A stretch of 64,000 bases of DNA from Terrimicrobiaceae bacterium. Lineage in GTDB: Bacteria; Verrucomicrobiota; Verrucomicrobiia; Chthoniobacterales; Terrimicrobiaceae. Shown here piece after piece: positions 7,567-54,497 of this stretch (position 1 is its first letter; each line of letters opens with the position of its first letter). The notes beneath the pieces are model-generated. The model was not told the origin of the DNA. It searched no databases and saw only the letters and a program-made list of their open reading frames with translations. The DNA is taken from positions 17,309 to 81,308 of the forward strand of contig JBGTGQ010000034.1 in the NCBI GenBank assembly GCA_041746635.1, read 5' to 3'. The position numbers and the translations under genes were made by a program.

Positions 7567-7577
7567 GCGGCTAAAAC

Positions 7578-40417: not shown

Positions 40418-41605
40418 TTAACGACAGGAGATCTCGTGCGCTTTTTGACAAATGGCAATGAACCGTTGGGCATAGAATCTTCCGCGTTTGGTGTTTTCGG
40501 CGAGCAGGGTGGCGGTATCGATTTCCGCAGGTTTGGCCGCCACGATTTCCTGCCATTTCGCACGCAGCGCATCGGCCAGAGAGCTGGAGTTCCCGTCGCG
40601 AAAAAAGAGCCCCTCGGGGGGAGCCTGCTCCCGGTGCGTGGCGATATCGGATAGGACAATGGGCTTATGCAGGGTGCGCGCCTCCTCGACCGTAGTGCTC
40701 CAGCCTTCAAAACGGGAGGGTTGTACCAGTAGAGCGGCTTGACGATAGACTTGGATCTGTTCCCGGCGTGGAACGATGCCCAGAAAAGTGATTTGGCTTT
40801 CGAGATTCAGGGCTTTGATTTTTGCGATCATGGCCTGTCGGAATTCGTCGGTTCGATAATCTTCCAGAGATCCGGTGCTGACCAAGGGGATCACAAGACC
40901 CTGTTCTTTCAGTTGGGCCAGCGCATCGAAAAGCACATCGTGGCCCTTGTGCTGCCACATTTGATTCGCGCAATATAAAAACCGTTGCGGCAGCCGCCGA
41001 TGCTCCAGGGCCTGGCACGGATCGGGGGCAAGGTCGGACTCTTCCATGATTGCGTGGAAGGAAAGCACCTCGACCGGCAGATGCCGGAAGTTGGGAAAAA
41101 AAGTATGAAAATCCTTCCGGGCGGACTCGCTGCTTAGAACGAGAAGGCGGCACGATTGGAGTAGCTGATCGTAGCCGGCATCGCGCTGATTGCGTTCCTC
41201 CAAGGTAAAATATTCGGGATAATGTTTGTATTGAAAGTCCGGTATCCAATGGATCGCCAGCGGGTGCGCGGCGGCATCGCCGCCTTTCTGAGGGAAGGCC
41301 ACGGTGCAGTCATCAGAGAGCCACCCCGTGGCCATTCCATCCTGCTTGGTCCATCGAGCGGTCATCCGATCGACCCGGACTATTTCGGATTCCCTGACCA
41401 GGGCTTCCAGACCGGTCACATCCCGCTTGCGTGAGACCCGCAAAAAGACAGGCGGACACTTTTTGGGCGAAATCATGTTTAACGCCAGGATCAGGTTTCG
41501 GGCATATTGGGCCCCGCCCAGCCAGTGGGAATCACCAGTGAGATAGAGAAGAATACCCATGGGCTTTTCCGGCCGGCGAAAAATCTTCCTGAAAAACTCT
41601 TTCAT
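40418..41605 (-). CDS. glycosyltransferase family 4 (paralogue of 30319..31509)
   Basis: RFEGWSTTVEEARTLHKPIVLSDIATHREQAP. ATG at 41605 (MKEFF...). The upstream 83 codons overlap the methyltransferase gene. Confidence 0.8.
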   Translation of the reverse strand: MKEFFRKIFRRPEKPMGILLYLTGDSHWLGGAQYARNLILALNMISPKKCPPVFLRVSRKRDVTGLEALVRESEIVRVDRMTARWTKQDGMATGWLSDDCTVAFPQKGGDAAAHPLAIHWIPDFQYKHYPEYFTLEERNQRDAGYDQLLQSCRLLVLSSESARKDFHTFFPNFRHLPVEVLSFHAIMEESDLAPDPCQALEHRRLPQRFLYCANQMWQHKGHDVLFDALAQLKEQGLVIPLVSTGSLEDYRTDEFRQAMIAKIKALNLESQITFLGIVPRREQIQVYRQAALLVQPSRFEGWSTTVEEARTLHKPIVLSDIATHREQAPPEGLFFRDGNSSSLADALRAKWQEIVAAKPAEIDTATLLAENTKRGRFYAQRFIAICQKAHEISCR

Positions 41606-41630: not shown

Positions 41631-42398
41631 TCAGAGACGCTGACGGATGGCAAAACCGATCCCGTAGCCCAGTTCAGAAAAGCGATAGCAGGTGAAGCGC
41701 TGGTCGCTCTCCACCACTGACTTCCAAACTTCGACAAGGTGGGGATGCTTGCGGTGGGCAATATCATCGAACACCAATGCACCGCCCACGGACACCCGCG
41801 GCAAAACCTCCCTGAGATCCTGGGCCGCGCCTTCCGCCGTGTGATCCCCATCAACCGTTACAATGTCAAAATAGAGGTCGGGATTCGCATCCAGATGCTT
41901 TTGCAGAACCTGATGGGAGTCGCCAATAACGAAATGACGCTCGCCTTTGTGACCAACCCGTTCCAGTTCCCTGCGGACGAGGTCCGGACCGGGATTCTCC
42001 ATATCCGCATAATTTTTTTTCTTCCACCGATCCAGCAAGGTCAGCTCACAACGCGGTGCAAACCTTCCCACTGCGCAGGCGCTCCGGCCCCGCCGGACCC
42101 CGATCTCCAGATAGGTCCGCGGCTTCAAGAGCTCGGCCAGGGTAACCAAAACTGTGATGATATCCGCATATTTCCACTTCTTCCCGAAGCGTTTGAGGCC
42201 GGCATCGTAATAGCCCTTCAAATAGAGAGTGTAGTCGTCATCCGATAATAACCCATAAAGCTTTCGCGCTTTGACCACCTGCTCGGCATTTAAGAGCACC
42301 GAGGAGATGGTGTTGATCCCGATGATCGTCGGGTCATAATAATCAGACCCGGCTTTTTCAGGAAGGAAGGTCGTAAAGGGATTGTAGATGGGACTCAT
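41631..42398 (-). CDS. class I SAM-dependent methyltransferase (Methyltransf_24-like)
   Basis: LEIGVRRGRSA...VTVDGDHTAEGAAQDL...GGALVFDDI. Confidence 0.7.
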   Translation of the reverse strand: MSPIYNPFTTFLPEKAGSDYYDPTIIGINTISSVLLNAEQVVKARKLYGLLSDDDYTLYLKGYYDAGLKRFGKKWKYADIITVLVTLAELLKPRTYLEIGVRRGRSACAVGRFAPRCELTLLDRWKKKNYADMENPGPDLVRRELERVGHKGERHFVIGDSHQVLQKHLDANPDLYFDIVTVDGDHTAEGAAQDLREVLPRVSVGGALVFDDIAHRKHPHLVEVWKSVVESDQRFTCYRFSELGYGIGFAIRQRL

Positions 42399-42430: not shown

Positions 42431-43138
42431 TTAAAGAGTTCTCACGGAGAGAGGGGCATGTGAATAGGCCACTGAGTCAGCAGGAACGTCCTTGGTTACG
42501 ACAGAACCGGCCCCGACAATGCTGTGATCCCCGATCGTGCACCCCTTGAAGATGAATGCTCCGGCGGCAATCCAGCAATAGTCCCCGATCGAAATGGGCG
42601 CGGAGCTGATGCGGGGAACGGGGGCTTTGACTTTCCTGATCATGCAATCAAGCTCGGTTTGGCGAAGAGTCCAGTCCTTGTGATGCGTATCATTATCGTA
42701 GAGATTTACATCATGGGCAATCATGACACCGGTGCCGATTTCAATGTGGTTGACGCTATAAATGATCGTATTGTCGCCGATGTAAACGCCCTCGCCTATG
42801 TGAATTTTTCCCCCGCGGCTGGCATGCAGAATGCCACGGACAATGCTGTTGGCCCCGATCGTGACGTTTTCCGGGGGACCGTCGTTGTTAATCTGGAAGC
42901 CGTAACCAAGGCGCACAGTGGGATCAAGCTGGCACTGGCTAGCCGCCCGTTTCCAAATCATTCTTCCAAACACAGAGGATACCTTATGCAGCAAGTGCCG
43001 CAGTAAGGAATCCAGCCAGCCTCCGGCCTCCGCGTCCTTTGCCTCAATCAACGCCCCGCTGCCAAAGGCGTGGGAAAACGCCTTGAGAAGCTGGGTATCC
43101 CGACAGGGCGAAGCCGGAGGTTTCGGCGGGGGCTTCAT
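42431..43138 (-). CDS. hexapeptide-repeat acyl/acetyltransferase
   Basis: Beta-helix repeats (IGANSIVRGIL..., IGDYCWIAAGAFIFKGCTIGDHSIVGAGSVVTKDVP). Confidence 0.8.
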   Translation of the reverse strand: MKPPPKPPASPCRDTQLLKAFSHAFGSGALIEAKDAEAGGWLDSLLRHLLHKVSSVFGRMIWKRAASQCQLDPTVRLGYGFQINNDGPPENVTIGANSIVRGILHASRGGKIHIGEGVYIGDNTIIYSVNHIEIGTGVMIAHDVNLYDNDTHHKDWTLRQTELDCMIRKVKAPVPRISSAPISIGDYCWIAAGAFIFKGCTIGDHSIVGAGSVVTKDVPADSVAYSHAPLSVRTL

Positions 43139-43180: not shown

Positions 43181-44656
43181 TTAGATAGTGCTGGCACTTA
43201 GCGTGGAAAAATAGAGGTCCTTAAGGTTGGAGTAGATATCAAGGGCCTCGCAGCCTGGCTCCCGGCTGCCGTTGCCCGATGCTTTGACGCCGCCAAAGGG
43301 CATGTGCGGCTCGCTTCCATAGGTTCCCGCGTTGACCACTGCCACGCCCGATTCCACCAGCCGCGTGAACTCCATGGCGCGATCGAAGTTCTTCGTATGG
43401 ATGCAAGCGGTCAGTCCGTAAGGAGACTTATTAGCCAGACTAAGGGCTTCCGCGAAACCGGACACCTTGTAAAGGCAGGCCACCGGCCCAAATAATTCAT
43501 GCTGGGAAATTTCGGCGTCCGGGTGCGCATTCTCAAGGAAGGTCGGTGCCATATAGAAACCGGAGGCATGTCCGGGACCAGTCAGGCGGTTTCCTCCGGT
43601 CAAAACCGTGGCACCTTCCAGCCGAGCCTTGCCCACCGCATCGAGCATGCGTTGAAGCTGGCGGGCGTTGATCACAGGACCAAAGTCGTCCGCATCGTCG
43701 GGACCCACTTTTTGCGTTTCCGCGCCCTTCACGAGTTTCTCGCGCAGGGCCTCGTAAATTGAATCGAAAATGATGATACGGCTGGCGGCGGCACAGCGCT
43801 GGCCGGCGTTGCTGAACGCAGATAACAAAATCCACTTGGCGGCATTATCCAGGTCGGCATCGTCACAGACGACGAGGGGGTTTTTGCCACCCAATTCCAA
43901 GGAAACCTTGGCCAGCCGGCGACCGGCCACCTCAGCAATAAGCCTTCCGACCGCGGAGGATCCGGTGAAACTAATCACGCCGACCCGTTCATCGGCAACC
44001 AAGGCCGCGCCTGCTTCCACTCCCAAACCTTGCATAATATTCAAGACGCCATCCGGCAATCCGGCGGCCTTGGCAAGGCGCGCGAAAACAATCGCGGTGG
44101 CCGGTGTATCTTCAGCCGCCTTGAGCACGGCCGTATTTCCGCAAATCAGTGCCGGAAAAACCTTCCAAGCCACGTTTGCAATCGGCGTATTGGCGGCAAT
44201 GATCAGTCCGGCCAGGCCAACGGGCTGACGAACGGTCATGGCCCACTTATTGGGCGTTCCGCTGGTGGTTGTTTTGCCGTAAAGGCGCTGACCTTCGCCT
44301 GCGTAGAAAAATCCCAAGGCGGCCGCGCCTTCGACTTCTCCCAAGGCATTGGCTAAGGACTTGCCGGTTTCAAGCGCCACGATACGGGCCACTTCTTCCC
44401 GGTGGTCGAGCAAGGCGGCGGCAATCCCGCGAAGGATATCGCCCCGTTTGACAGCGGGCACTTCGGCCCAAGCCGGTTGGACACTCCGCGCTGTCTCGAT
44501 GGCGGCTGAAACATCCTGGGCATCGGATCGCGACACCTCGAACAACACGGTGCCATCGTGAGGATTGAGTTTTTCCAGAATCCTTCCCTTTAGGGCAGCC
44601 TGCTCTTTTCCTGCGATGAAGTTTAAAACTTCCTTGAAACTCGTAAGATCGTTCAT
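43181..44656 (-). CDS. NAD(P)-dependent aldehyde dehydrogenase
   Basis: FTGSSAVG, SLELGGKNP and SNAGQRCAA (catalytic Cys) motifs. ATG at 44656 (MNDLTSFKE). The longer ORF overlaps the upstream gene. Confidence 0.85.
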   Translation of the reverse strand: MNDLTSFKEVLNFIAGKEQAALKGRILEKLNPHDGTVLFEVSRSDAQDVSAAIETARSVQPAWAEVPAVKRGDILRGIAAALLDHREEVARIVALETGKSLANALGEVEGAAALGFFYAGEGQRLYGKTTTSGTPNKWAMTVRQPVGLAGLIIAANTPIANVAWKVFPALICGNTAVLKAAEDTPATAIVFARLAKAAGLPDGVLNIMQGLGVEAGAALVADERVGVISFTGSSAVGRLIAEVAGRRLAKVSLELGGKNPLVVCDDADLDNAAKWILLSAFSNAGQRCAAASRIIIFDSIYEALREKLVKGAETQKVGPDDADDFGPVINARQLQRMLDAVGKARLEGATVLTGGNRLTGPGHASGFYMAPTFLENAHPDAEISQHELFGPVACLYKVSGFAEALSLANKSPYGLTACIHTKNFDRAMEFTRLVESGVAVVNAGTYGSEPHMPFGGVKASGNGSREPGCEALDIYSNLKDLYFSTLSASTI

Positions 44657-44669
44657 TGGTAGATAGCTA

Positions 44670-45611
44670 TCAGTGATTCCCTGCCCTTGAGAACTCGGAT
44701 TTCCAATCCAAAGCACATTCCGCCACAGCGTGGGCCAGCGCTGGGGCTTTGAGCGGGCCGGCCAATTGTTCCAACAGCGTCGTGTCAGCCCTCCACCGAA
44801 CCGGATCCCCCGGAGGAGAGCTGTCCGCAACTTTCAGCGGCTTGGAACACCCGACAGCATCCATGACCTGCCGGGCCAGTTCAGCGACGGAAGTTTCCAC
44901 ACCGCTGGCAAGATTCACGGCGGTGAACCGGCCCGGCAAGGAGGGATTTTCCATAAGTCGGAACAGCCGCTCCATGCAGTCCCGGACAGGCAGGTAATCC
45001 CGCGTCTCTTCTCCCGTCCCATGGATGACCAATTGCGGGTCGTCCGCAAGCACCCGCTGCACCAGCTCCCACAAAAGAAGCCGACGTTGCTCGCGGCCGA
45101 AAACAGAAAACAGCCTCACCGCCAGGACGGAGATGCCATAACAGACATTAAACTCCCGCGCCAGAAGCTCGCAAGCCAGTTTGTGAAAACCATACGGCGA
45201 GATGGGCTGGAGGGGGGCATCTTCCGCAATCGGAAGAGTCGGGGGGTTGCCATAGACAGCGGCGCTGGAGGGGAAAACAACCAGGGCTTGTGATTTCGCC
45301 TCGCGAACTCCTTCCAGGAGATTGGCAAAAGTAAGAACTGAGGCCTTGAGGTCATCCAGGGGGGATAACAAGGAGCGTCCCACCGAGGCCGAACCGGCGG
45401 CATGAACCACCACATCCGGCGCAAAGTCTTCGATGATTGGGGACAGCCGCGACGTGGCCACGTCAACACTGAGGTACTCGTACTCGCCCGTCATTTTCAA
45501 GGAGGGCTGAGCGGAACGGGCCAGGCCGAGAACGTCGTGTCCTCGCGCAGACGCATCCGCGGCCACACTTCCGCCCACGAATCCGCCGCAGCCGGTAACG
45601 AGAATTTTCAT
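44670..45611 (-). CDS. NAD-dependent sugar epimerase/dehydratase (SDR)
   Basis: MKILVTGCGGFVGG and SPYGFHK (YxxxK). ATGA overlap at 45608-45611. Confidence 0.85.
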   Translation of the reverse strand: MKILVTGCGGFVGGSVAADASARGHDVLGLARSAQPSLKMTGEYEYLSVDVATSRLSPIIEDFAPDVVVHAAGSASVGRSLLSPLDDLKASVLTFANLLEGVREAKSQALVVFPSSAAVYGNPPTLPIAEDAPLQPISPYGFHKLACELLAREFNVCYGISVLAVRLFSVFGREQRRLLLWELVQRVLADDPQLVIHGTGEETRDYLPVRDCMERLFRLMENPSLPGRFTAVNLASGVETSVAELARQVMDAVGCSKPLKVADSSPPGDPVRWRADTTLLEQLAGPLKAPALAHAVAECALDWKSEFSRAGNH

Positions 45612-47329
45612 GCGGGTTGCGGGGCGGCGGCCGCCATGTTTTCTGCCTCATCTTCTGCGCGATACACGAAGGGCGCTCCCTCGATGATCCCGCGGCAAAT
45701 GACACCAAGTCCCGGGTCGGCTTTGTCGGAAAAACTTTCCAGCGAATCGGCCACCATGGTGAAGGGGCGCTTTGTTTTGGGTATTTGCTCCACCACGCGC
45801 AGTGGAATCATCCGGCGGAAGAAGAAATGATAGGCGTACTTCAGCGCGCGCATTTTGGTTACTTCCGGCAAGCGTTGTAGCTTGGGGAGCGCATCGAGCA
45901 AACGAAAGTAAGATTCCGGAGAAGTGGCATCATCGGTCAGACCCTTGTTGCGAATCCACGCTTCCCCGGCCACGATCACCGGAATGCCGATGCTGGTGAG
46001 TTCGACTCCGGTTTTGGTGCCGTAAATGATGGCGGTGTCGCAATCCAACGCCAGCGCATACGTGCTCACGTCTTTCTCGGGACCGATAATCCGGATGTTC
46101 TCAGGGAGCGCGGGAAACAGCCTTGCTATTTCCTCTGCCATCAACTGCCGGGACGGAATACCTCCACGGATCTCCGCCGGATGAACCCTGATGATCAAAT
46201 TCAAGTCCGGCCGTTTGGAAAAATAACGGATGGTCTGCTCGATCCAGTCAAGCATGTTCAAAAATGCATTCGCGCGATAATGCAACTGGGCATCCCAAAT
46301 CACGTTGGTAAGCAGAAGAATGCTTGGCTGGCTTTTTTCAAAATGCAGCTCTTGCCGGATCCGCTCGATATCCTCGGTGGGGTTCTCGTGGAAATAGATC
46401 CAATCCTGGGATCCCTGCCAGCGGCTCTTGAGGTATTCCATGGCCTGTTGCTGAATTTTTTCCGTCCAACTTATCGAATCCCACGTACCGACCGGTTCAT
46501 CGACCAAGGTATGATGATACGTGTCGCCGTGGCTGAAGATAAATCGTTGCTTCCTGTAGGCCACCACCCAGTTGGCGATTCGCACCCCCGACTGACGCGC
46601 GACCTCGCCAATGATTCCCTGCGGAATATAGATCCCGTGATGAAAACTGAGGCAACGAAAGGAACGTGAAGCCAACAGCCGACCCATGGCCATGGCGGTG
46701 AGAAGTGAAGCTTCAAAATAACGCCGCAGAACCGGTTCCGCCGTTTCCTCCTGGCTCAAATCGCCCCGCGCGAAAAAACGCAAGGCCCCCGCGGCGGCGT
46801 GTTCCCCGGCGGACAATCCCCGGAATTTGAAGTCGGGGATGTCGGCCATCGGCGTCTTCTGGGCCAGACGAGACGCAGACTTTTTGTCTCCCTTGGTAAG
46901 GAAGTCGGAATACTTCAAAACCGGCAGCCCGAGTGCTCCATAAGTGCTGTCTCCGGCGCCGAAGCAAGCCTGACAATGATTGGACGGACCCGCTTCCACG
47001 AACTGCCACGGGCTTTTGAACATTTTGAAGGTGCATTGCTCGCAGGCTGTCAGCGCACCGTCACAGAGAAGAAAACTTACCCTTGCCCCCCGCAGGGTCA
47101 GCGCGATGGCGAGCACCATGTCCAATTCGCGCACAGCTGCGTGACCACCCACACTAGACGCCAGTAAAATCTCCGGGCCACTCTGCGCAGCCCGAACGGC
47201 TTTTCGCCACTTATCCCCCTCGCGTTCGAGAAAATCCGCGAGGTGTTTAGGCGGGGGCTGACGCGGTGCGGCCACCGGTCTTTTCGGTGGCAAGAATTTC
47301 CTGAGAAAGGAAAACAGTTCCATTACCAT
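45608..47329 (-). CDS. capsule-biosynthesis (KpsS/KpsC, Capsule_synth)-like GT-B protein with N-terminal Cys cluster
   Basis: 573 aa. LNLIIRVHPAE and AIIYGTKTGVELTSIGIPVIVAGEAW resemble the KpsS/KpsC/LipB family. N-terminal C-x6-C-x2-C ... C-x2-C cluster. The assignment is from motif memory only. Confidence 0.5.
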   Translation of the reverse strand: MVMELFSFLRKFLPPKRPVAAPRQPPPKHLADFLEREGDKWRKAVRAAQSGPEILLASSVGGHAAVRELDMVLAIALTLRGARVSFLLCDGALTACEQCTFKMFKSPWQFVEAGPSNHCQACFGAGDSTYGALGLPVLKYSDFLTKGDKKSASRLAQKTPMADIPDFKFRGLSAGEHAAAGALRFFARGDLSQEETAEPVLRRYFEASLLTAMAMGRLLASRSFRCLSFHHGIYIPQGIIGEVARQSGVRIANWVVAYRKQRFIFSHGDTYHHTLVDEPVGTWDSISWTEKIQQQAMEYLKSRWQGSQDWIYFHENPTEDIERIRQELHFEKSQPSILLLTNVIWDAQLHYRANAFLNMLDWIEQTIRYFSKRPDLNLIIRVHPAEIRGGIPSRQLMAEEIARLFPALPENIRIIGPEKDVSTYALALDCDTAIIYGTKTGVELTSIGIPVIVAGEAWIRNKGLTDDATSPESYFRLLDALPKLQRLPEVTKMRALKYAYHFFFRRMIPLRVVEQIPKTKRPFTMVADSLESFSDKADPGLGVICRGIIEGAPFVYRAEDEAENMAAAAPQPA

Positions 47330-48120
47330 GCGGTCCAGCCACCATCCACCACCACATCGGAACCCGTCATGTATTTTGAAGCCTCGGAAAGCAACAGCAC
47401 GACGGGACCGAAATAATCCTCCGCCGTGGCCATGCGCCCCATGGGCATGCGGTTGAGATAGCCTTTCAGAAACTTTTCATCCTGACCGTCGGAAACTCCA
47501 GCGAGAGTGAGGGTGTTGACCCGCACCCCTTGGGATGCCCAATAAGTGGAAAGATATCTCGTAAGATTGTAAAGAGCCGACTTTGAAGCCGAATAAGCAA
47601 CGGGTTTAAAAAAAGCATTCCCGTCGTTTTCCCGATAAGTGTAGATTCTCTGATCCGGAGAAACCGCGCCATAGATCGAACTAATGTTGATAATGGATCC
47701 GCGGCCGGCCTGCGCCATGGCTCCGCCAAAGACCTGGCAGCAGAGAAACACGCCCTTGACGTTGACATCCATGACCGCATCCCATGATTTTTCCGGGTAG
47801 GTTTCAAACGGCCCGTTTTCTTCCGCCGGGCTGTTGGGAGGTGAGTCGAGAGCGGCATTATTGATTAGGCCGAAAGGCACCTCCCATCGACGGGTGATCA
47901 ACGCCAACGCGGCTTCCAATTCGGATCGCACCAGCACATTGGCGGCCACATGCAGAATCTCATCGTTGGAAACCGCATTTTTCACCGCATCCGCCCGGTC
48001 GATCACCGCCAGTCTCGCACCGCGATCAACCAAACATCTGCTGTATTCGCGGCCAAGGCGGCCCATTCCCCCGGTCACCACCACAACTTTGTTTTCCAGA
48101 GAAAACAGCGGATCATTCAT
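47323..48120 (-). CDS. SDR family oxidoreductase (classical short-chain type)
   Basis: VVVVTGGMGRLG, NNAA and a YSASK catalytic motif. Confidence 0.85.
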   Translation of the reverse strand: MNDPLFSLENKVVVVTGGMGRLGREYSRCLVDRGARLAVIDRADAVKNAVSNDEILHVAANVLVRSELEAALALITRRWEVPFGLINNAALDSPPNSPAEENGPFETYPEKSWDAVMDVNVKGVFLCCQVFGGAMAQAGRGSIINISSIYGAVSPDQRIYTYRENDGNAFFKPVAYSASKSALYNLTRYLSTYWASQGVRVNTLTLAGVSDGQDEKFLKGYLNRMPMGRMATAEDYFGPVVLLLSEASKYMTGSDVVVDGGWTAW

Positions 48121-49091
48121 TAGTAATTTGCTTTCTTTTCATATCCGATGGCTATTTCGCGACAATGTTCGTAAATCCCGCGGCAGTGAGCCTCCATGAA
48201 GGCCGCGTCCTCCGGGGCAACATGGCTCGAGCGGTCGAGCGCATCGGCCAGAATGCCCGGATTGGGGGCCGCGAAAGATGTATCCGCCCGAATTGGCATT
48301 CCGTTAAAGGTCGGGGTCAGAAGCTTTTCGGAAAACGCGATACCCAGATCGCAGCAAAGTGCCGTCATGATCTCGCGGGGGCGGGCAACCAAATCCTCAA
48401 AGATGACGACAAGGACATTCCGGCCCGACTTTTGTAATTGGAGGGCGGCAAGCGTGGAGGCTTGCCAGAGAAAGGCCGCTTCAACGCGATCTCCATAGAC
48501 CTTCGGATCATGCCGTTTGGCCGATGCCAGCCAGGAAACAGGGTCTCTTACCATCGTAATCAAGGCACCATCTGGATAATCGGAAAAAAATCGCTCCGGT
48601 TCACCCGGCATCATGGAAAGCCGGGCGGAAAATGCACACCAGCATTTTACCTCCGCAGGAAAACCATAGTCCGACCAAGCTTGGAAATAACTCCAGACGA
48701 ACCGATCAAGCAAGTTTCGGGGCAAAGGCACGGTGAGCCCCTCACACGCGTCGAGAAAAAGTTGACGATGCTCCCGCACATCCAGCTTGAAATCAAACCG
48801 ATCGGGCGCCGTCACAGCTGCCGGCGAGGCCTTGACATATCCTTTTTGAGCTAATTTCTCCACCAGCGGATCCTCCAGCTGATTGAAGGTCTCATCCGGC
48901 CCAACATAGGAAGGCAAGGCCGCCCAAAAATGCTTGAGACGCGATCCGAATCTCAACTCAGAGTGTCGCACAAGCATTTGAGGATGGCCGTCAAAAAGCT
49001 GGGTTAAGAACGTGCCCCCGCTTCTTTGCACCTGGGAAATCAAGACAAGCGGAGGCGAAAAATCGCTTGGAAATGCCGTATAATTCTCCAT
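48120..49091 (-). CDS. sulfotransferase family protein
   Basis: ISQVQRSGGTFLTQL (5'-PSB-like loop) and ITMVRDPVSWLAS (3'-PB-like RDP motif). ATG at 49091 (MENYTAF). The longer ORF overlaps the upstream gene. Confidence 0.6.
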   Translation of the reverse strand: MENYTAFPSDFSPPLVLISQVQRSGGTFLTQLFDGHPQMLVRHSELRFGSRLKHFWAALPSYVGPDETFNQLEDPLVEKLAQKGYVKASPAAVTAPDRFDFKLDVREHRQLFLDACEGLTVPLPRNLLDRFVWSYFQAWSDYGFPAEVKCWCAFSARLSMMPGEPERFFSDYPDGALITMVRDPVSWLASAKRHDPKVYGDRVEAAFLWQASTLAALQLQKSGRNVLVVIFEDLVARPREIMTALCCDLGIAFSEKLLTPTFNGMPIRADTSFAAPNPGILADALDRSSHVAPEDAAFMEAHCRGIYEHCREIAIGYEKKANY

Positions 49092-49104
49092 CAGGAAATC
49101 CAGA

Positions 49105-49623
49105 TTATTGATGGCTTTGTAGGCGCCAAACGAGATCACAGAATTCGCGCACAGCCCCATGGCCACCGGGCCGCAAGGTCCGAAACCGCGCCAAGGAGAC
49201 CACTTCCTCGACGGCGTCGGCGACCACCACCGGCAAACCCACGACCCGAAGACAGGCCGCATCGTTGACATCGTTGCCCAGAAAAGACGTTTCCTCCATT
49301 TTGAGGTGTTTTTCGGCCAGGAACGAACTCAAGGCCCCCGCCTTGTCTTCACAACCTTGCACGCAGGGTAACTTCAACTTGCGACAGCGCGCGCTCACCA
49401 CCGGATTAACCTCCGTGGAAATAACAACGGCAGAAATGCCGATTGAGCGCAACCGTTCGAGGCCTATGCCATCCGCCCGGCTGCAGCGAACGGATTCCTC
49501 TCCAGTTTCGGAGACATAGACCGCATTGTCGGTAAAAACCCCGTCGAAGTCGAAGGCGGCGCAGCGCAATCGACCCAGCAGCGCGAGATCGGCCTCCGCC
49601 AGGGACGAATACAACTCGCTCAC
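49105..49623 (-). CDS. HAD-superfamily KdsC-type (C0) phosphatase, candidate nonulosonate-9-phosphate phosphatase
   Basis: FDFDGVFTDN (motif I) and GNDVND (motif IV), 172 aa. GTGA overlap with the synthase gene. Confidence 0.8.
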   Translation of the reverse strand: MSELYSSLAEADLALLGRLRCAAFDFDGVFTDNAVYVSETGEESVRCSRADGIGLERLRSIGISAVVISTEVNPVVSARCRKLKLPCVQGCEDKAGALSSFLAEKHLKMEETSFLGNDVNDAACLRVVGLPVVVADAVEEVVSLARFRTLRPGGHGAVREFCDLVWRLQSHQ

Positions 49624-50672
49624 GCCAGATTATCATCCGTGAAAAAATCGTCTTCCGCAAGGGCAGCCTTCAATTTTTTCCCGATAAGTGAATCGATCTC
49701 GTAAGGAGGCATACCTCCCGCAGGCACCTTAATCGCGACGTGCTCGCTGGTGATCACGGTTCCGGCGGGAAGATCCCGCGCGGCGAAGAGGCTCTTGCCC
49801 ATCTTGGTGATGGCGGGGATTTCCTGGGGCAAAACCTGCTTCTCCGGGCTGCCCAGCGCTTCGCGGGCACGCTCCAGATCGCGCACCATCTTGTGCATGC
49901 CGATCGGCTCAAGGGAAAGGGCATGATCCGTTCCCTTCCAAGTATGATTAAGGGTGAAATGCTTCTCGATCACGCGAGCTCCGAGAACATAAGCCGCCAC
50001 GGTCAGGGAGATGCCGTTGAAGTGATCGGAAAGACCGATGACGACATCAGGAAAAGCCTCACGCAGGGTGGGAATGACGCGCAGGTGCATATCCCTCGCC
50101 TCCGTCGGATAAGTCGCCGTGCATTGCAGGAAGCAAAGCTGGGGATTGATCGGAGCGATCTCCTCGTAAACCCGTTTGACATCGTCGAGGGACCCGCCGC
50201 CGGAACTGATAATCATGGGCTTCTTGAACCCGGCAACATGCTTGAGGAGCGGGAGATTCTTCAGATCGGCCGAGGCAATTTTGTACAGCGGCAGGTCGAG
50301 GTCCGCGAGAAAGTCTGCGCTGGCATGATCGAAAGCCGTGGCGAAAAAGTGGATGTCCAGTTCCTTGGCCAGTTGTTGGAATTCGAGATAGTCCTTTTTG
50401 CCAAACTCCAGAAATTCGCGGTGTTCTCCATACGTCTTGCCGAAGCTGTTTTCGTTTTCGTAGGGTTTGTTATAAGCGGCTTTGGTGAAGAGCGTTTTGT
50501 TTTCGCGTTTCTGGAGCTTCACGGCCTGCACACCGGCCATCTTCGCGGCCCGGATGAGGTCGAGAGTTTTCTCCACGTCGCCTTGTCCGTTGTTGCCCAG
50601 TTCGGCAATGACATAACAGTTGCTGTCGTCATCGATGCGGGTGCCTTGAATGGTGAGGTGTCGGTCTTTCAT
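49620..50672 (-). CDS. neuB: nonulosonic acid (sialic acid/KDN) synthase, NeuB family, NANS-like subtype with SAF domain
   Basis: CYVIAELGNNGQGD, GKTYGEHREFLEF, FLQCTATYP, GLSDH, TWKGTDHALSLEP and a C-terminal SAF-like domain. Confidence 0.85.
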   Translation of the reverse strand: MKDRHLTIQGTRIDDDSNCYVIAELGNNGQGDVEKTLDLIRAAKMAGVQAVKLQKRENKTLFTKAAYNKPYENENSFGKTYGEHREFLEFGKKDYLEFQQLAKELDIHFFATAFDHASADFLADLDLPLYKIASADLKNLPLLKHVAGFKKPMIISSGGGSLDDVKRVYEEIAPINPQLCFLQCTATYPTEARDMHLRVIPTLREAFPDVVIGLSDHFNGISLTVAAYVLGARVIEKHFTLNHTWKGTDHALSLEPIGMHKMVRDLERAREALGSPEKQVLPQEIPAITKMGKSLFAARDLPAGTVITSEHVAIKVPAGGMPPYEIDSLIGKKLKAALAEDDFFTDDNLA

Positions 50673-50814: not shown

Positions 50815-52176
50815 TCAAGCCCGGTCAGCCAGATTTATTTTCAACTCACGAGCACGCCGCGTGATTTTGGGAATCAATTTGCGGCGGAGCGCTCCCTCGT
50901 CCGATATATACTGCGCCAGTTTGAATAGACGCTTCGGCGTGACGGAGATCGTCATCTCGCGCGATCTCCGCTGGGTGCGAGTGAGAATGTACCTGACCCA
51001 CCATTTGGTCAGCGTTTTTCCAAGGAACAGGCGGGCAGACCAAAGGGAAGCCTGTCGCAACTTGAGATCGAGGACTTCGATCTCCTCGATCTGTCGATCT
51101 CTGGCGGACTTTTCCGTGGGGATCGGTCCGAATCCAGCGCACACCCTTTCGAGGGTTTCGAGACGATATTGCAAAATCTGCCTCAACTGGCGCGCTTCGT
51201 TCAAAAACTCCATTTGCCCACCTTCGGTTCCGCAACCAAAAGAGGAATCCGCCTGCGGCGCTTGAAATTCAAGCAACCTCTCGGAAATATGCTGACGCAA
51301 ACAAACCCCCGCTTCGCGATCACGTTCCTTCTTGTGAGTCTCAATGAACTCCGAAAAGACTTCGCAACCCCATTCGCGTTCTTCGGACGGCACTTCCTCG
51401 GTGAATTTGGCGTGAAAAGATCGCAAGGGATGACGCTCCGGACTCAGATGACGCCGGAGAAAGCTTCCCTGCATCGCGCTCCAAACAGAATGGAGCAAAA
51501 GCTTTTCATATCTGGCTTCGTAAAGGCGCTTGTTTCGCGCGATGCGCTCCTTCCTTTCCTTGCCTCCAATCCAGGAATCACCCTCATGATGACGGAAATG
51601 ATCAATGGCGATCTTCTTGGAAAAAACGACATCCAAGCCAGCCAGCAAGACCCGGGTGGTCAGATCATTGTCAATGAAGTAGTCGCGTAAGTTTTCGTCA
51701 AAGCCTCCCAATTCCCGAAAGACGCTGGTGCGTAATACGCCTTGATTACAATTGAGAACTCCGGTGGTTCCCACGGTGCCAATGAAGGGAAGATGCGCGG
51801 AGGGACCAGTCACATCCTTCACCTTCAAGCTGACTAAACCTATGGAGGAATCCTGGTCGAGAACCTGGACAGCATGCCGCAAGGCACCCGGACGAATGAC
51901 ATTATCATCACTCAACCAGCACAGATAGTCCGTTTTGGCTTGGTCCGCCGCGCGGTTCAAGGCCCACGCCTGACCATTGCGCTCTTTTTCCAAAACGACC
52001 TGAACGTCGGTTTGCGTCTGGAGATACTCCCTCGTTCCATCCGTTGATCCCGCATCGATTACCACAATCGATACAAAATCATAACCTTCGCCGCGCACTA
52101 AAGCAAGACAGCGTTCGAAAAGCGCCTTGCGATTGCAGGTGCCTATCACCACGGTGATACGAGGTCCGTTAGCCAT
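50815..52176 (-). CDS. GT2 glycosyltransferase with a helical C-terminal extension of about 200 aa (paralogue of 58618..59892)
   Basis: ITVVIGTCNRKALFERCL...VIDAGSTDGT...WLSDDN. ATG at 52176 (MANGPR). The tail contains heptad-like stretches (FLNEARQLRQILQYRLETLERV). Confidence 0.75.
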   Translation of the reverse strand: MANGPRITVVIGTCNRKALFERCLALVRGEGYDFVSIVVIDAGSTDGTREYLQTQTDVQVVLEKERNGQAWALNRAADQAKTDYLCWLSDDNVIRPGALRHAVQVLDQDSSIGLVSLKVKDVTGPSAHLPFIGTVGTTGVLNCNQGVLRTSVFRELGGFDENLRDYFIDNDLTTRVLLAGLDVVFSKKIAIDHFRHHEGDSWIGGKERKERIARNKRLYEARYEKLLLHSVWSAMQGSFLRRHLSPERHPLRSFHAKFTEEVPSEEREWGCEVFSEFIETHKKERDREAGVCLRQHISERLLEFQAPQADSSFGCGTEGGQMEFLNEARQLRQILQYRLETLERVCAGFGPIPTEKSARDRQIEEIEVLDLKLRQASLWSARLFLGKTLTKWWVRYILTRTQRRSREMTISVTPKRLFKLAQYISDEGALRRKLIPKITRRARELKINLADRA

Positions 52177-54466
52177 GTTCTGCGGGAAGACTTGCGCGAT
52201 CATTGGACAGACCGTCTGGCGGAAAGACCGAGCTTTTCCACTCCTCAATGTGGCAGGTAAAATCTGTGATGCATGGCGTGAAGGCGGCCGGGGTCAGGAA
52301 ACCGGTTCCATAATAATCCCCTTCCTCAACCAGCAAGAATTCCGGCGGTTTCAGGGTGTCCATTAACTCCCCGTTTATCATGAGTGAGAGAGAAAATGAA
52401 TAGCTCCCCGCCACTAGGGGAAGCTTGGGGAGCATAAAGCAAACTGCTGCCTGATCCGGGAACGGTTCCAGGCTCCCCCCAACCATCCTGCTATCCAATC
52501 CCAAGACACGAACGCCCTCTTTGTTAAGAATCAGGAGCTTGATTTTGGCTTTAGAGATTTCCGCAGCCAACGGGAAAGTTTTCACGCATTTGACGACCAG
52601 GCGGCAGGTCTCTCCGGTGCGAAAGCTGCTGGTCGCACGGTTATGGATATCGCGGGTTTCCAGACTCTGGATCTTGTAGGCGGGAATCTCCTCACCCTCC
52701 AAGTAGCCTCGCATCGGAGGATGCAAGCCTTTCCGCCCCTCAAGGTAACAGATGAATTCCACACAGACAGGAGCAAAAAAGGGCAGGGCGGCACGACAAA
52801 ATCCATAAAAATCACCATCCTCGACAGTAAGCGGGACGTCGGGAACATATTCATCAATCAGTTCCGCATTCATGAAGAGGGAAATCACAAAGGAATATGT
52901 GCCCGCCGCCAAGGGGAGCTTCGGTAACTCAAAATAAATCGTGTCCGCATCAGGAAACGGAACGAACAGAGGCTTCACTAGGCTGCTATCCATTCCAATC
53001 ACGCGGATGCCTTTGTCATTCACAATTGACAGGCGCAGGGTAACCTTCCGAATTTCTTCATTCAGCGGGAAGTTTTTTGCATATTTCACGGCGATGCAAC
53101 ACGGCTCAGCCGTGCGAAAGCTGCTCGTCGCACGGTTATGGATATCGCGGGTTTCCAGACTCAGAATCTTGTAGGCGGGATTTCGCTCACCCTCCAAATA
53201 GCAAGTGAAATCCACGCAAAGAGGAGTAAAGGAAGGGGAGGCCGCGCGACCGGTGCCGTAGAAGTCTCCGTCCTCCACCAAAAAAAAGGCGTCCGGAATA
53301 ACTTTGTCTATCAACTCACCATTCACCGAGAGGGCAAGCGAGAAAGAATACGTGCCCTCCATGAGGGGAAGCTTCGGAATGACGAAACATACCGCACCTG
53401 TGTCGGGAAAAGGAATAAGCTTGGGTTTTACCAAACTGCTATCTAATCCTATAAGGCGATTGCCTTGTTCATTAAGAATCGACAGCCGCAATGTGACTTT
53501 GTCGATGGCTTGCTCTAGGTGGAAGTTATTGGAGTACTTCACGGCGATGCGGCAGGGTTCCCCCGTGCGAAACCTGCCGGCGGGTCGTCCCTGGCCGTCG
53601 CGGGTTTCAACCGCGAGAATTTTATAAGCGGAGTTTTTCGATTCACCCGCCAAGTGAAGGGCTGCGGAGTGCGAGGGAGAATGAACTGCCAGCTTGATAA
53701 TCTGCGCTTTACGATATTCCTCGCAGACCACATCCGTGTCACCGTCCATGCGTACGGTTCCCTTTTCCAACCAGATGACCCGGCTGCACAAGCGTGAAAC
53801 ATGGCCAATACTGTGGCTGACAAAGAGCCCGGTTTGCCCTCCCGAAGCCAGCACCTCAATGCGGTGCAGGCATTTTTCCCGGAAGCCTAGATCACCGACA
53901 GCCAGGACTTCATCGAGAATCATAATTTCGGGCTCGATAATAGCCGCGACGGAGAAAGCCAGGCGCACCCTCATACCGCTGGAATAGCGCTTTACCGGGG
54001 TGTCAATAAATTGATGCAGCTCCGCAAAGTCCAGAATCTCATCAAACTTGCTCTCAATTTCCCCCCGGCTCATACCCAGAACCGCGCCATTGAGAAAAAC
54101 GTTGTCGCGGCCGGTTAGTTCAGGGTGAAATCCTGATCCTACTTCCAGGAGAGTGCCCACCCGGCCATTGATGGTCATTTCCCCTGTTGTGGGGGTCGTG
54201 ACACGGGCGAGAAGCTTCAGCAGGGTGGACTTGCCAGCTCCATTTGTGCCGATGAGTCCGACGGTTTCCCCCTTTTTGATGTCGAAGGAGATGTCTTTGA
54301 GTGCCCAGAATTCCGGCGTGGCGGCGGGCGGAGCCGCAGCGGCTGGTTTACCGCGACGGAAAACACGGTCCCGCCAGCCTCGTAGGTCATCCAGCATCAT
54401 GCGCTGATTCACCGTTCCCAAACGGTATCGTTTGGAAATATTACGGAGGGAGATGGCGATTGGCAT
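52169..54466 (-). CDS. wzt: polysaccharide ABC exporter ATP-binding protein (Wzt/TagH type) with three tandem C-terminal modules
   Basis: Walker A GTNGAGKST, signature YSSGM, Walker B MILDEV. Directly downstream of an ABC-2 permease gene. aa 280-745 form three homologous repeats. Confidence 0.9.
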   Translation of the reverse strand: MPIAISLRNISKRYRLGTVNQRMMLDDLRGWRDRVFRRGKPAAAAPPAATPEFWALKDISFDIKKGETVGLIGTNGAGKSTLLKLLARVTTPTTGEMTINGRVGTLLEVGSGFHPELTGRDNVFLNGAVLGMSRGEIESKFDEILDFAELHQFIDTPVKRYSSGMRVRLAFSVAAIIEPEIMILDEVLAVGDLGFREKCLHRIEVLASGGQTGLFVSHSIGHVSRLCSRVIWLEKGTVRMDGDTDVVCEEYRKAQIIKLAVHSPSHSAALHLAGESKNSAYKILAVETRDGQGRPAGRFRTGEPCRIAVKYSNNFHLEQAIDKVTLRLSILNEQGNRLIGLDSSLVKPKLIPFPDTGAVCFVIPKLPLMEGTYSFSLALSVNGELIDKVIPDAFFLVEDGDFYGTGRAASPSFTPLCVDFTCYLEGERNPAYKILSLETRDIHNRATSSFRTAEPCCIAVKYAKNFPLNEEIRKVTLRLSIVNDKGIRVIGMDSSLVKPLFVPFPDADTIYFELPKLPLAAGTYSFVISLFMNAELIDEYVPDVPLTVEDGDFYGFCRAALPFFAPVCVEFICYLEGRKGLHPPMRGYLEGEEIPAYKIQSLETRDIHNRATSSFRTGETCRLVVKCVKTFPLAAEISKAKIKLLILNKEGVRVLGLDSRMVGGSLEPFPDQAAVCFMLPKLPLVAGSYSFSLSLMINGELMDTLKPPEFLLVEEGDYYGTGFLTPAAFTPCITDFTCHIEEWKSSVFPPDGLSNDRASLPAEHG
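52232..52681 (-). repeat. Wzt C-terminal module copy 3 (aa 596-745)
   Basis: AYKIQSLETRDIHNRATSSFRTGETCRLVVKC...LPLVAGSYSFSLSLMINGELMD...VEEGDYYG...DFTCHIEE. Shares a stretch of about 90 nt, near-identical, with copy 2 (495-nt period). Confidence 0.8.
52682..53176 (-). repeat. Wzt C-terminal module copy 2 (aa 431-595)
   Basis: AYKILSLETRDIHNRATSSFRTAEPCCIAVKY...LPLAAGTYSFVISLFMNAELID...VEDGDFYG...EFICYLEG. Confidence 0.8.
53177..53629 (-). repeat. Wzt C-terminal module copy 1 (aa 280-430)
   Basis: AYKILAVETRD...FRTGEPCRIAVKY...LPLMEGTYSFSLALSVNGELID...VEDGDFYG...DFTCYLEG. Confidence 0.8.
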
Positions 54467-54497
54467 GGTTGAGGGTAATCCGACTTGCGTCAGGAAA

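Follow-up and report, generated by a model that had tools for sequence, protein, structure and literature searches.

Which genes of a tightly packed block in a Terrimicrobiaceae bacterium belong together, and what ulosonic acid might they build? Within the window (the whole 64,000-nt stretch that we analysed), seven genes at 43181..50672 lie on the minus strand, as do all other features located below. The initial annotation had read them as one unit running, in transcription order, from synthase through phosphatase, sulfotransferase, SDR, Capsule_synth-like protein and epimerase to aldehyde dehydrogenase (ALDH). ORF and domain analysis reproduced the joined genes, their domains and a 142-nt gap upstream of the synthase gene (49620..50672). 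With homologue-supported start codons the junctions measure -4, +13, -1, -1, -4 and +13 nt. For the sulfotransferase and ALDH genes, the longest ORFs start farther upstream, which would mean overlaps of ~160 nt with the adjacent genes, and one sulfotransferase database entry of 346 aa implies a 56-nt overlap; we favored the short sulfotransferase start because homologues have 313 aa. The gaps between the genes of the block contained no terminator-like site, and its promoter-like sites did not exceed the shuffled expectation. The block edge at ALDH is arbitrary, and tight coupling extends to the cytidylyltransferase: an acetyltransferase, a methyltransferase, a GT4 and the cytidylyltransferase follow at gaps of 42, 32, 25 and 13 nt.

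Judged by gene order, these genes do not stand side by side by chance, because relatives keep the arrangement, with the sulfotransferase in the metagenomic relatives L085, L088 and L089 and without it, but otherwise matching, in L082, L083 and L084. The seven contiguous genes are nevertheless not the evolutionary unit. Comparative evidence points instead to a seven-gene cassette of NeuB-like synthase, KdsC-like phosphatase, SDR, ALDH, cytidylyltransferase, transketolase (TK)-like enzyme and KpsC-like transferase, of which the window would hold a locally rearranged copy. The original gene list thus included an epimerase that belongs to an accessory module and omitted an obligatory core gene, the non-canonical transketolase, whereas the expected joint recurrence of synthase, phosphatase, SDR, ALDH, cytidylyltransferase and Capsule_synth-like protein was borne out in many phyla. 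Cassette members are 45–70% identical across >10 phyla (Chloroflexota, Acidobacteriota, Gemmatimonadota, Proteobacteria, Fibrobacteria, and others), mostly in the order NeuB-HAD-SDR-ALDH-CMPT-TK-transferase. The transferase had 4181 homologues, with 447 matches in the species-representative genome collection. All six partner genes lay beside it in 16/81 loci and at least four in 30/81, or in 20 of the 39 loci with full 10-kb flanks. NeuB, SDR, and ALDH occurred together in 29 loci, 22 of which also had the TK-like gene; in two more of the 29 it is split (L005) or truncated where the contig ends (L058). In L066 (NeuB-SDR-ALDH-CMPT-transferase) no recognisable TK or phosphatase was within reach. 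The searchable literature yielded no published description of the cassette and no biochemical or glycan-structure data for organisms carrying it, and it is apparently both widespread and undescribed.

The first two core genes and the fifth fit a ulosonic acid pathway. The NeuB-family synthase, a predicted PEP:aldose(-phosphate) condensing enzyme with a SAF domain (PF03102, 249 bits), scored below the equivalog cut-offs for NeuB (279 vs 400) and PseI (236 vs 340); its orthologues are 52–65% identical and adjoin the transferase in 29+ loci. Overlapping it by 4 nt is core gene 2, a KdsC/YrbI-type HAD phosphatase (49105..49623), putatively acting on a ulosonate phosphate. Its top NCBIfam matches were KdsC, the YrbI family, and KDN-9-P phosphatase, all below cut-off, and it is co-conserved at 48–60% identity. 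A phosphatase step implies that the synthase product is phosphorylated. The cytidylyltransferase (39634..40404; CTP_transf_3, PF02348, 80 bits), a putative CMP-ulosonate synthetase, had a PseF-like N-terminus below cut-off; orthologues are 54–68% identical and usually sit between the ALDH and TK-like genes.

Core genes 3 and 4 are candidates for oxidation of the side chain. The classical SDR (47323..48120; adh_short_C2), with orthologues 42–63% identical, was nearest to the families KduD, gluconate 5-DH, mannonate oxidoreductase, and GolD/DthD and to the structures of galactitol DH (2wdz) and mannitol DH (1h5q). We propose that it dehydrogenates the penultimate carbon in the side chain of the ulosonic acid, since its nearest characterised relatives (galactitol and mannitol DHs, gluconate 5-DH, mannonate oxidoreductase, and KduD) all oxidise such a carbon and so yield a terminal ketol. 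The NAD(P)-dependent ALDH (43181..44656; PF00171, 493 bits) has orthologues 57–70% identical and matched best, below cut-off, to alpha-ketoglutaric semialdehyde/2,5-dioxovalerate dehydrogenases. Because these nearest relatives act on 2,5-dioxovalerate, a 2-keto-3-deoxy acid semialdehyde, we propose that it converts a side-chain aldehyde to a carboxylate. In the Kdo8N pathway, oxidation takes place after dephosphorylation and before CMP activation. Its Kdo 8-oxidase, KdnB, is a precedent for tail-end tailoring of a free ulosonic acid, as given in a passage of PMC5125639 citing Gattis 2013.

Core gene 6 encodes a fused TK-like ThDP enzyme (31546..33459; Transketolase_N, Transket_pyr, Transketolase_C). 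In the window it lies ~6 kb from the cytidylyltransferase gene, with a low-GC insert between it and the rest, while in L001, L084, L087, and most loci the two genes adjoin. Its NCBIfam transketolase score was below cut-off, and the closest PDB entry was human TKT (4kxu, E 7e-58). In an alignment of 37 orthologues with human TKT, all catalytic and cofactor residues were kept, with H37, H77, H110, D155, N185, H258, E366, and the yeast-H481 position invariant. In contrast, none of the four sugar-phosphate-binding residues of the human enzyme was retained: R318 was deleted, S345 was replaced by Asp, H416 by Leu/Tyr, and R474 by Ser/Ile/Thr. The C4-OH-binding D424 was always Pro. Loss of the phosphate site and D424 therefore favors a non-phosphorylated ketol substrate and disfavors a role in sugar-phosphate supply.

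Core gene 7 (45608..47323) encodes a putative CMP-ulosonate glycosyltransferase of KpsC/KpsS-like (GT107-like) type (PF05159, 29 bits against a cut-off of 20 bits); the protein is extended at its N-terminus and has four invariant Cys. As had been suggested, it resembles KpsS/KpsC, and it is closest to the KpsC beta-Kdo transferases. Its AF2 model (pLDDT 86.8) had KpsC (6mgb/8fuw/6mgc) as best PDB fold matches, and hhalign placed the invariant D346 against KpsC D160 and H383-P384 against the KpsC HP motif in a modest match (probability 42%, E 2.6e-4). The neighboring GT2 glycosyltransferase (50815..52248; PF00535), which has a long helical C-terminal half, is likely its partner. In several loci (L006, L025, L064, L066) the gene immediately upstream of the transferase encodes a GT2 domain that is 36–47% identical, and P0037 is an 869-aa fusion of a GT2 domain and the transferase.

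The link to sulfation drawn by the initial annotation stood in part. The sulfotransferase (48120..49091; Sulfotransfer_3, PF13469, 40 bits), in whose alignment the QRSGGT and RxPxxWxxS motifs are invariant, is on its distribution an accessory gene recurring beside the cassette, not a core gene. It was absent from L082, whose transferase is 88% identical, and from 79/81 loci in the genome scan. It occupies the equivalent position in L085/L088/L089 and L139, and members of the same subfamily adjoin the cassette and Wzm-Wzt in L003, L087, L091-L095, L106, and L110; the adjacency thus recurs, across several phyla, in nine or more additional loci that are not syntenic, among them that of cultured Methylomonas koyamae. 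Four other genes form what is, by its recurrence, a separate accessory module: an extended SDR, a GalE-like epimerase/dehydratase (44670..45611; PF01370, 138 bits; best match GalE, below cut-off), a hexapeptide-repeat O-acetyltransferase (42431..43138; Hexapep, WbbJ/WcaF-like), a Methyltransf_24 methyltransferase (41631..42398; PF13578, 62 bits), and a GT4 glycosyltransferase (40418..41605; Glycos_transf_1). All four follow the transferase in 9/81 loci, and only in the verrucomicrobial arrangement does the epimerase lie between transferase and ALDH. In L003, L025, L063, L065, and others the transferase is immediately followed by an acetyltransferase homologue (33–38% identity); within matching modules the methyltransferases are 47–53% and the GT4s 30–42% identical.

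A tailored, oxidised ulosonic acid, as the initial annotation suggested, is the best reading of these sequences. From the gene content, co-conservation, family assignments, and active-site residue patterns described above, we infer substrates, a product, and a cap role, and we order the SDR, TK-like, and ALDH steps by family resemblance. The synthase would join PEP to a common aldose phosphate, perhaps most simply Man-6-P, and the HAD phosphatase would remove the phosphate from the resulting ulosonate phosphate. The SDR would then act on the free side chain, oxidising its penultimate carbon to form a terminal ketol (-CO-CH2OH), from which the TK-like enzyme would cleave a two-carbon ketol, leaving an aldehyde that the ALDH would convert to a carboxylate. 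The outcome would be a dicarboxylic sugar acid, a 3-deoxy-2-ulosaric acid, with two carbons fewer than the compound that the synthase forms. The cytidylyltransferase would form its CMP-sugar, and the KpsC-like transferase would attach this to a Wzm/Wzt-exported surface polysaccharide. That the cassette makes, activates, and attaches such a side-chain-oxidised 3-deoxy-2-ulosonic acid has, in our estimate, about an even chance of being right. Against the route count the several loci that lack a nearby phosphatase, the gene set of L066, with neither TK nor phosphatase recognised, and the low-GC insert that sets the window's TK-like gene apart. TK-type cleavage also requires that the two-carbon unit be passed to an acceptor or otherwise released, a further point against it.

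Classical SDRs can also oxidise primary alcohols, and an SDR and ALDH could then work without a TK. The product might be a Kdo8N-like ulosaric acid of unchanged length, with the SDR taking the terminal CH2OH to an aldehyde, the ALDH taking that to the acid, and the TK-like enzyme having some other task, such as the synthesis or recycling of a precursor that carries no phosphate, or the addition of a two-carbon unit at another site. SDR plus ALDH is a standard alcohol-to-acid pair, L066 has both without a detectable TK, and KdnB converts C8 of free Kdo to an aldehyde (the same passage of PMC5125639). We still think this unlikely: it gives no role in the oxidation to a TK-like enzyme that is almost universally co-conserved (about 60% identity), whose lost phosphate site makes supply of a phosphorylated aldose improbable, and the nearest relatives of the SDR are secondary-alcohol (penultimate-carbon) dehydrogenases.

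In another reading, SDR, TK-like enzyme, and ALDH might build a small acidic substituent (e.g. glycolate or glycerate from a ketol unit) on an otherwise ordinary KDN-type sugar or on the polymer. TK-like enzymes can produce two-carbon glycolaldehyde units, small hydroxy-aldehydes are among the substrates of ALDHs in this broad clade, and the weaker NCBIfam matches of the ALDH include lactaldehyde and glyceraldehyde dehydrogenases. However, neither a ligase nor a CoA-transferase, acyl carrier, or acyltransferase is present in the core, and the acetyltransferase, an accessory enzyme, is of the hexapeptide type that uses acetyl-CoA, which leaves this option improbable. Least probable is an ordinary KDN/sialic-acid-type pathway with unrelated dehydrogenase, ALDH, transketolase, and sulfotransferase as operon passengers. 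In Bacteroides, synthase, phosphatase, and cytidylyltransferase suffice for CMP-KDN, and every enzyme here matches generic families only, below equivalog cut-offs. Yet passengers would not be expected to hold together at 45–70% identity in fixed order across >10 phyla, nor to include a TK-like enzyme whose remodelled substrate pocket is family-specific and invariant.

Where the oxidised residue would end up bears on export. Upstream lie genes for Wzt and the Wzm permease (52169..55346; ABC_tran with three Wzt_C stretches; ABC2_membrane), which by their domains are the exporter of the polysaccharide. Wzt joins an ABC ATPase to three Wzt_C carbohydrate-binding modules in tandem, and L085 and L088 share the conserved 771-aa form. 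The cassette has Wzm/Wzt nearby in 15/81 loci and in most sulfotransferase-linked loci. A cap role would not be general, because the Kallotenue cassette sits in a Wzx/Wzy/Bac_transf locus. This, the lack of Wzm/Wzt within 10 kb of many transferase loci, and the two transferase paralogues of some genomes (L003/L029, L006, L095) fit a repeat-unit or core constituent, with the Wzt modules binding something else, which we regard as a serious possibility at somewhat under even chance. On the other side, Wzm/Wzt with a Wzt_C module lie beside the cassette in many loci, regularly so in sulfotransferase-linked ones, and in Klebsiella O12 and O4 it is proven that Kdo residues end the chain and that Wzt modules recognise them (PMC11231755). 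In the lineage studied here, the accessory module and the sulfotransferase may decorate the ulosaric residue or its acceptor, and by analogy with Klebsiella the decorated residue is plausibly a chain cap, a possible terminal epitope for the carbohydrate-binding modules of Wzt.

The seven minus-strand genes at 43181..50672 lie within one large minus-strand glycan-assembly island that spans ~8 kb to 63 kb of the window and contains >20 glycosyltransferases, Wzm/Wzt, and sugar-modifying enzymes. The block begins with a NeuB-like synthase carrying a SAF domain (49620..50672), followed by a KdsC-like HAD phosphatase (49105..49623), a Sulfotransfer_3 protein (48120..49091), a classical SDR (47323..48120), a PF05159 Capsule_synth-like protein (45608..47323), an extended-SDR epimerase/dehydratase (44670..45611), and an aldehyde dehydrogenase (ALDH; 43181..44656). 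With homologue-supported starts, the successive junctions are -4, +13, -1, -1, -4, and +13 nt, and a 142 nt gap lies upstream. ORFs, domains, and junction distances thus bear out the gene content and tight coupling described in the initial annotation. Ending the unit at the ALDH was arbitrary, as coupling continues through an acetyltransferase, a Methyltransf_24 protein, a GT4, and a cytidylyltransferase at gaps of 42, 32, 25, and 13 nt. The intergenic gaps of the block contained no terminator-like hairpins and only background levels of promoter-like sites, and no Rfam family matched in the 30-56 kb region of the window. Fragments from Terrimicrobiaceae MAGs were 81-93% identical.

We searched 81 loci encoding homologues of the Capsule_synth-like protein (hereafter the transferase), taken from species-representative genomes, with all window proteins. 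The transferase was accompanied by the NeuB-like synthase (52-65% identity), the HAD phosphatase (48-60%), the classical SDR (42-63%), the ALDH (57-70%), the cytidylyltransferase (54-68%), and a fused transketolase-like (TK-like) ThDP enzyme (45-62%). The last of these had been overlooked in the initial gene set and lies outside the block, at 31546..33459. All six partners occurred in 16/81 loci and at least four in 30/81, or in 20 of the 39 loci having full 10-kb flanks. The commonest arrangement was an uninterrupted synthase-phosphatase-SDR-ALDH-cytidylyltransferase-TK-transferase order, which is also that of the cultured Chloroflexota member Kallotenue papyrolyticum. Some loci had no nearby phosphatase, and one from Thermodesulfobacteriota (L066) had neither a detectable TK-like gene nor a phosphatase. 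In L066, three ORFs (6555..9093) between the ALDH and cytidylyltransferase genes carry the sulfotransferase-like motifs HIPRTGG, PRSGSS, RxPVxRxxS, and YEDL. Their assignment as sulfotransferases was rejected, with no Pfam matches and insignificant hhalign matches.

Lineages with the cassette include Verrucomicrobiota, Chloroflexota, Acidobacteriota, Gemmatimonadota, Cyanobacteria, Planctomycetota, several proteobacterial classes, Desulfobacterota, Nitrospirota, Fibrobacteria, and Armatimonadota, with Methylomonas koyamae, K. papyrolyticum, Moorena, and Geminicoccus as cultured carriers. A search of plasmids returned a distant Legionella homologue as its sole match. The ulosonic acids Kdo, sialic, legionaminic, and pseudaminic acid rank among the key bacterial surface determinants and have pathways regarded as well catalogued; we know of no described ulosonic-acid pathway that uses an SDR, a remodelled transketolase, or an ALDH. 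We classify the cassette as an ulosonic-acid biosynthesis and transfer system with an undescribed tailoring branch. Its distinctive features are conservation at ~50-70% identity, the joining of a sialic-acid-type synthase to SDR, TK-like, and ALDH genes, and a KpsC-like transferase of its own.

The synthase matched PF03102 at 249 bits (cut-off 22) and a C-terminal SAF domain at 40 bits, and scored below the NeuB/PseI equivalogs TIGR03569 (279 bits vs cut-off 400) and TIGR03586 (236 vs 340). The phosphatase likewise fell below the thresholds of TIGR01670 (95.8 vs 106.95), KdsC (99.9 vs 208), and KDN-9-P phosphatase (85.6 vs 180), so that it resembles the KdsC/YrbI family short of demonstrated orthology. 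The KDN pathway of Bacteroides thetaiotaomicron also comprises a NeuB-family synthase, a KdsC/YrbI-type HAD phosphatase, and a CTP_transf_3 cytidylyltransferase. However, the three cassette counterparts are below curated equivalog cut-offs, and that pathway lacks the SDR, ALDH, and TK-like enzyme that are all obligatory in the cassette. The nearest characterized relatives of the SDR are galactitol/mannitol dehydrogenases, gluconate 5-dehydrogenase, mannonate oxidoreductase, GolD/DthD, and KduD, all of which form a terminal ketol by oxidizing a polyol or sugar acid at its penultimate carbon. The ALDH scored 493 bits to Aldedh and below the equivalogs GucD (411 vs cut-off 770) and 2,5-dioxovalerate dehydrogenase (406 vs 750), scores that place it in the ALDH superfamily only, below equivalog level. 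Its nearest relatives are the dehydrogenases of 2,5-dioxovalerate (alpha-ketoglutaric semialdehyde), a 2-keto-3-deoxy acid that ends in an aldehyde.

The TK-like protein, simply labeled 'transketolase' in databases, is closest to human-type transketolase (E 7e-58) and has the full three-domain architecture, with an NCBIfam transketolase score of 355 bits vs a cut-off of 488. In the window its gene is split from that of the cytidylyltransferase by a low-GC segment; in the metagenomic relative L084 it directly follows the cytidylyltransferase and its product is 74% identical to the window's. No gene fusions were found among the top 120 TK-like homologues. We aligned 37 cassette orthologues with human TKT and used human numbering; the TKT sequence used is consistent with the PDB alignment. 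Like human TKT-type transketolases (~620 aa), the orthologues retain the ThDP, metal, and catalytic residues, with H37, H77, H110, D155, N185, H258, and E366 invariant in 37/37 and His at the yeast H481 position in all. In contrast, the four positions that bind the substrate phosphate in human TKT were changed in every orthologue (R318 deleted, S345 to Asp in all, H416 to Leu/Tyr, R474 to Ser/Ile/Thr), and D424, which contacts the donor C4-OH, was Pro in 37/37. This residue pattern indicates that the protein is a functional ThDP ketol-transfer catalyst with a substrate other than an ordinary sugar phosphate.

We infer the substrates and product of the cassette from family resemblance, residue patterns, and synteny. 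In a shortening model, in which we place about as much belief as doubt, the NeuB-like enzyme would condense PEP with a common aldose phosphate and the condensation product would be dephosphorylated. The SDR would then turn the free side chain into a -CO-CH2OH terminus, from which the TK-like enzyme would cleave a two-carbon ketol, and the ALDH would oxidize the aldehyde thus exposed. The resulting 3-deoxy-2-ulosaric acid would be CMP-activated and transferred. 8-keto-KDN has the D-threo arrangement required of transketolase donors, and the oxygen on its 'C4' would be that of the pyranose ring, an arrangement that would be consistent with the missing C4-OH Asp in the TK-like enzyme. Two other readings assign these enzymes differently. 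As the leading rival, the SDR and ALDH could oxidize the terminal carbon with no chain shortening, but this leaves the transketolase unexplained and we judge it quite improbable. In what would be its simplest role, the TK-like enzyme could instead supply the aldose phosphate for the synthase, comparable to the rifamycin amino-DAHP pathway; we rejected this role because every phosphate-binding residue is lost and the predicted substrate is something other than a common sugar phosphate.

The tailoring that the shortening model proposes for a free ulosonic acid has a counterpart in the Kdo8N pathway, where tail oxidation falls between the phosphatase and CMP-activation steps. In Shewanella, the Kdo 8-oxidase KdnB, which acts with the aminotransferase KdnA, provides a precedent for oxidizing the tail of a free ulosonic acid, and the pathway likewise proceeds via an aldehyde (PMC5125639). 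The two systems differ in that Kdo8N uses an iron alcohol dehydrogenase and the cassette an SDR, and the Kdo8N aldehyde is transaminated whereas that of the cassette is proposed to be oxidized by the ALDH. Kdo8N also has a KdsA-type synthase and no ThDP enzyme, while the cassette has a NeuB-type synthase and adds a ThDP enzyme.

The transferase is a member of a large family whose conservation is unusually high, with 4181 database matches, typically 50-57% identical across phyla and labeled 'hypothetical' or 'capsule biosynthesis protein', and 447 matches from >10 phyla in a one-genome-per-bacterial-species collection. Pfam Capsule_synth (PF05159) matched residues 326-470 only, at 29.2 bits vs a cut-off of 20, and when the transferase alignment was used as a profile against the PDB, no KpsC chain was matched by sequence. 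The AlphaFold model (AF2, 18 homologues; pLDDT 86.8) had KpsC as its top five PDB matches (6mgb, 8fuw, 8fux, 6mgc; E ~1e-8), followed by generic GT-B enzymes, with target-normalized TM-scores to KpsC of 0.46-0.55. In an hhalign comparison with KpsC from the annotated E. coli CFT073 kps locus, invariant D346 aligned with D160, invariant H383-P384 with the HP motif, and GEAWIRNKGLT with GQPWYAGWGLT, at modest statistics (probability 42%, E 2.6e-4). The adduct and ternary-complex PDB structures of KpsC carry a mutation at D160, and the same motifs of KpsS also align with the transferase. The common fold, invariant Asp, HP motif, and G..W..KGLT motif are shared with the retaining beta-Kdo transferases KpsC/KpsS (PF05159, CAZy GT107), and from these and the model we read the protein as a putative GT107-like CMP-ulosonate transferase. 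Unlike KpsC, which has dual modules, it has a single module plus an N-terminal extension of ~320 residues containing four invariant cysteines, and its donor is presumably other than the CMP-Kdo of KpsC/KpsS. These cysteines (C89, C96, C119, and C122), invariant across 18 diverse homologues and located in the N-terminal region that KpsC lacks, may form a structural metal site.

In several loci the gene just upstream of the transferase encodes a GT2 like that at 50815..52248 (-), and a GT2 domain forms one polypeptide with the transferase in the 869-aa protein P0037 of the filamentous cyanobacterium CCP5. Because of this adjacency and fusion in other loci, the window GT2 is probably part of the same functional unit, a pair of enzymes. 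A single-sequence AF2 model of this GT2 (50815..52203) had a pLDDT of 38, too low for structural interpretation. Two transferase paralogues occur within ~16 kb in three cases: on one Anaerolineales contig (L003/L029), in the CCP5 locus (L006), and in L095. On the Anaerolineales contig, one paralogue is by the biosynthetic core and the other by Wzm-Wzt-sulfotransferase and an accessory module.

Wzm (ABC2_membrane) and Wzt (ABC_tran with three tandem Wzt_C modules) are encoded two genes upstream of the synthase, and Wzm/Wzt lie beside the cassette in many loci. The three Wzt_C carbohydrate-binding modules of the window Wzt (52169..54466, -) are ~150 aa each and clearly alike. The 771-aa Wzt is kept in the metagenomic relatives L085 and L088, and in the more distant L083 and L084, Wzt is 423 aa long and has a Wzt_C match. 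In ABC-transporter-dependent O antigens, a terminal residue halts polymerization and is bound by the C-terminal module of Wzt; in Klebsiella O12 and O4, beta- or alpha-Kdo is the chain-terminal residue and export signal (PMC11231755). The Klebsiella systems, with O12 WbbB (GT99) and O4 ORF7 (GT137), likewise place a Wzt_C-bearing Wzt beside a CMP-ulosonate transferase. They differ from the window system in having GT99/GT137 terminators rather than a GT107-like transferase and Kdo rather than what appears to be a tailored non-Kdo ulosonic acid, and the window system also has three tandem Wzt modules and involves a sulfotransferase. Since Kdo terminators are bound by Wzt and Wzm/Wzt accompany the cassette, the chain cap read by Wzt that was initially suggested is a reasonable analogy. 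The sugar is not exclusively a terminator, however, because the Kallotenue cassette is in a Wzx/Wzy/Bac_transf locus.

The sulfotransferase matched PF13469 at 40.3 bits vs a cut-off of 27. Q22-R23-S24-G25-G26-T27 and R182/P184/W187/S190 were invariant in 20 homologues, and we take these motifs to be the 5'-PSB and 3'-PB loops of PAPS-dependent sulfotransferases. No PAPS-synthesis genes were present among the window ORFs scanned. L082 has a transferase 88% identical to the window's and no sulfotransferase gene between those of the phosphatase and SDR, which overlap by 4 nt; L083 and L084 also lack it, and only 2/81 loci had a homologue. L085, L088, and L089 match the window order exactly, from the GT2s through the 771-aa Wzt to the cytidylyltransferase, with sulfotransferases 73-75% identical to the window's. 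Members of the same subfamily at 38-43% identity occur beside cassette genes, usually directly after Wzm-Wzt, in M. koyamae (L087), the Anaerolineales MAG (L003), and the metagenomic loci L091-L095, L106, L110, and L139, and homologues at 36-38% identity are mostly unlinked to the cassette. This distribution argues that the sulfotransferase is not a core gene, yet no random passenger. Because it is missing in close relatives yet recurs beside the cassette and Wzm-Wzt, sulfation appears to be a recurrent optional add-on of the system in ABC-transporter loci. The accessory module of acetyltransferase, Methyltransf_24, GalE-like epimerase, and GT4 followed the transferase in 9/81 loci, and in the verrucomicrobial arrangement (L082-L085, L088) the epimerase is between the transferase and ALDH.

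Other genes of the island also have counterparts in these relatives. The segment 33472..39633, with the cytidylyltransferase on one side and the TK-like gene on the other, has a lower GC content (47-51% vs 54-60% in its neighbors) and carries a 799-aa protein, a GT2, and an LPG_synthase_TM-like membrane protein. The first of these (36575..38974) had no Pfam or NCBIfam matches; L085 and L088 have counterparts 57-64% identical, and L082 has a SASA-domain esterase-like protein in its place. Within an apparent 659-nt gap after the cytidylyltransferase, a 108-aa ORF (39200..39526, -) is probably a real small gene, since counterparts in L085, L088, and L082 share 56-59% identity with it. A 425-aa protein (57331..58608, -) had matches below cut-off to TIGR04396 'surface carbohydrate biosynthesis protein' and to the BFO_1060 glycosyltransferase family, and is 86-88% identical in L085, L088, and L089; it may be a second nonulosonate-type transferase of the locus. 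At the upstream end, a TylF-type O-methyltransferase (60193..61320, -) is a candidate for terminal methylation. TylF-like genes separate Wzt from the synthase in L083 and L084, and others lie close to the cassette in L017, L078, and L079.

To our knowledge, Dha (3-deoxy-D-lyxo-hept-2-ulosaric acid) is the only familiar natural 3-deoxy-2-ulosaric acid, and it belongs to the same product class as the ulosaric acid predicted for the cassette. NeuB-family products (Neu5Ac, KDN, Pse) have a C4 configuration opposite to that of Kdo and Dha. We therefore set aside Dha itself as the product; unless the synthase differs from NeuB-type enzymes in this respect, the product would be a Dha stereoisomer. 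Dha occurs in plant RG-II and in the sulfated walls of prasinophytes, where it is accompanied by Kdo, 5-O-methyl-Kdo, and GalA; how it is synthesized and in what form it is activated are still listed as unknown (PMC12168206, PMC3355719). A passage in PMC5713287 citing Russa 1991 also reports Dha in the LPS core of Rhizobiaceae. Full-text literature searches by enzyme and pathway names found no description of the SDR/TK/ALDH/NeuB/KpsC combination, and nothing relevant on the pairing of a sulfotransferase with Wzt in the literature searched.

Our broadest proposal, which we consider possible though doubtful, is a new route to 3-deoxy-2-ulosaric (Dha-class) sugars. A transketolase without a phosphate site would act as a side-chain C-C lyase on an oxidized free nonulosonic acid, the ALDH would add the second carboxylate, and the CMP-ulosaric acid would be widespread in surface polysaccharides. 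Because cultured carriers exist, the cassette model is directly testable. If true, CMP-ulosaric acid, frequently with sulfate, methyl, or acetyl groups, would be an unnoticed polysaccharide component or export cap in environmental bacteria, and its synthesis could be the first enzymatic template for the missing Dha pathway of plants and green algae. The model would add a new class of bacterial sugar and extend the transketolase family to a new type of reaction, and would provide ABC-transporter export with a new terminal signal on the O antigen, one that may be sulfated, as well as giving a concrete lead on Dha biosynthesis.
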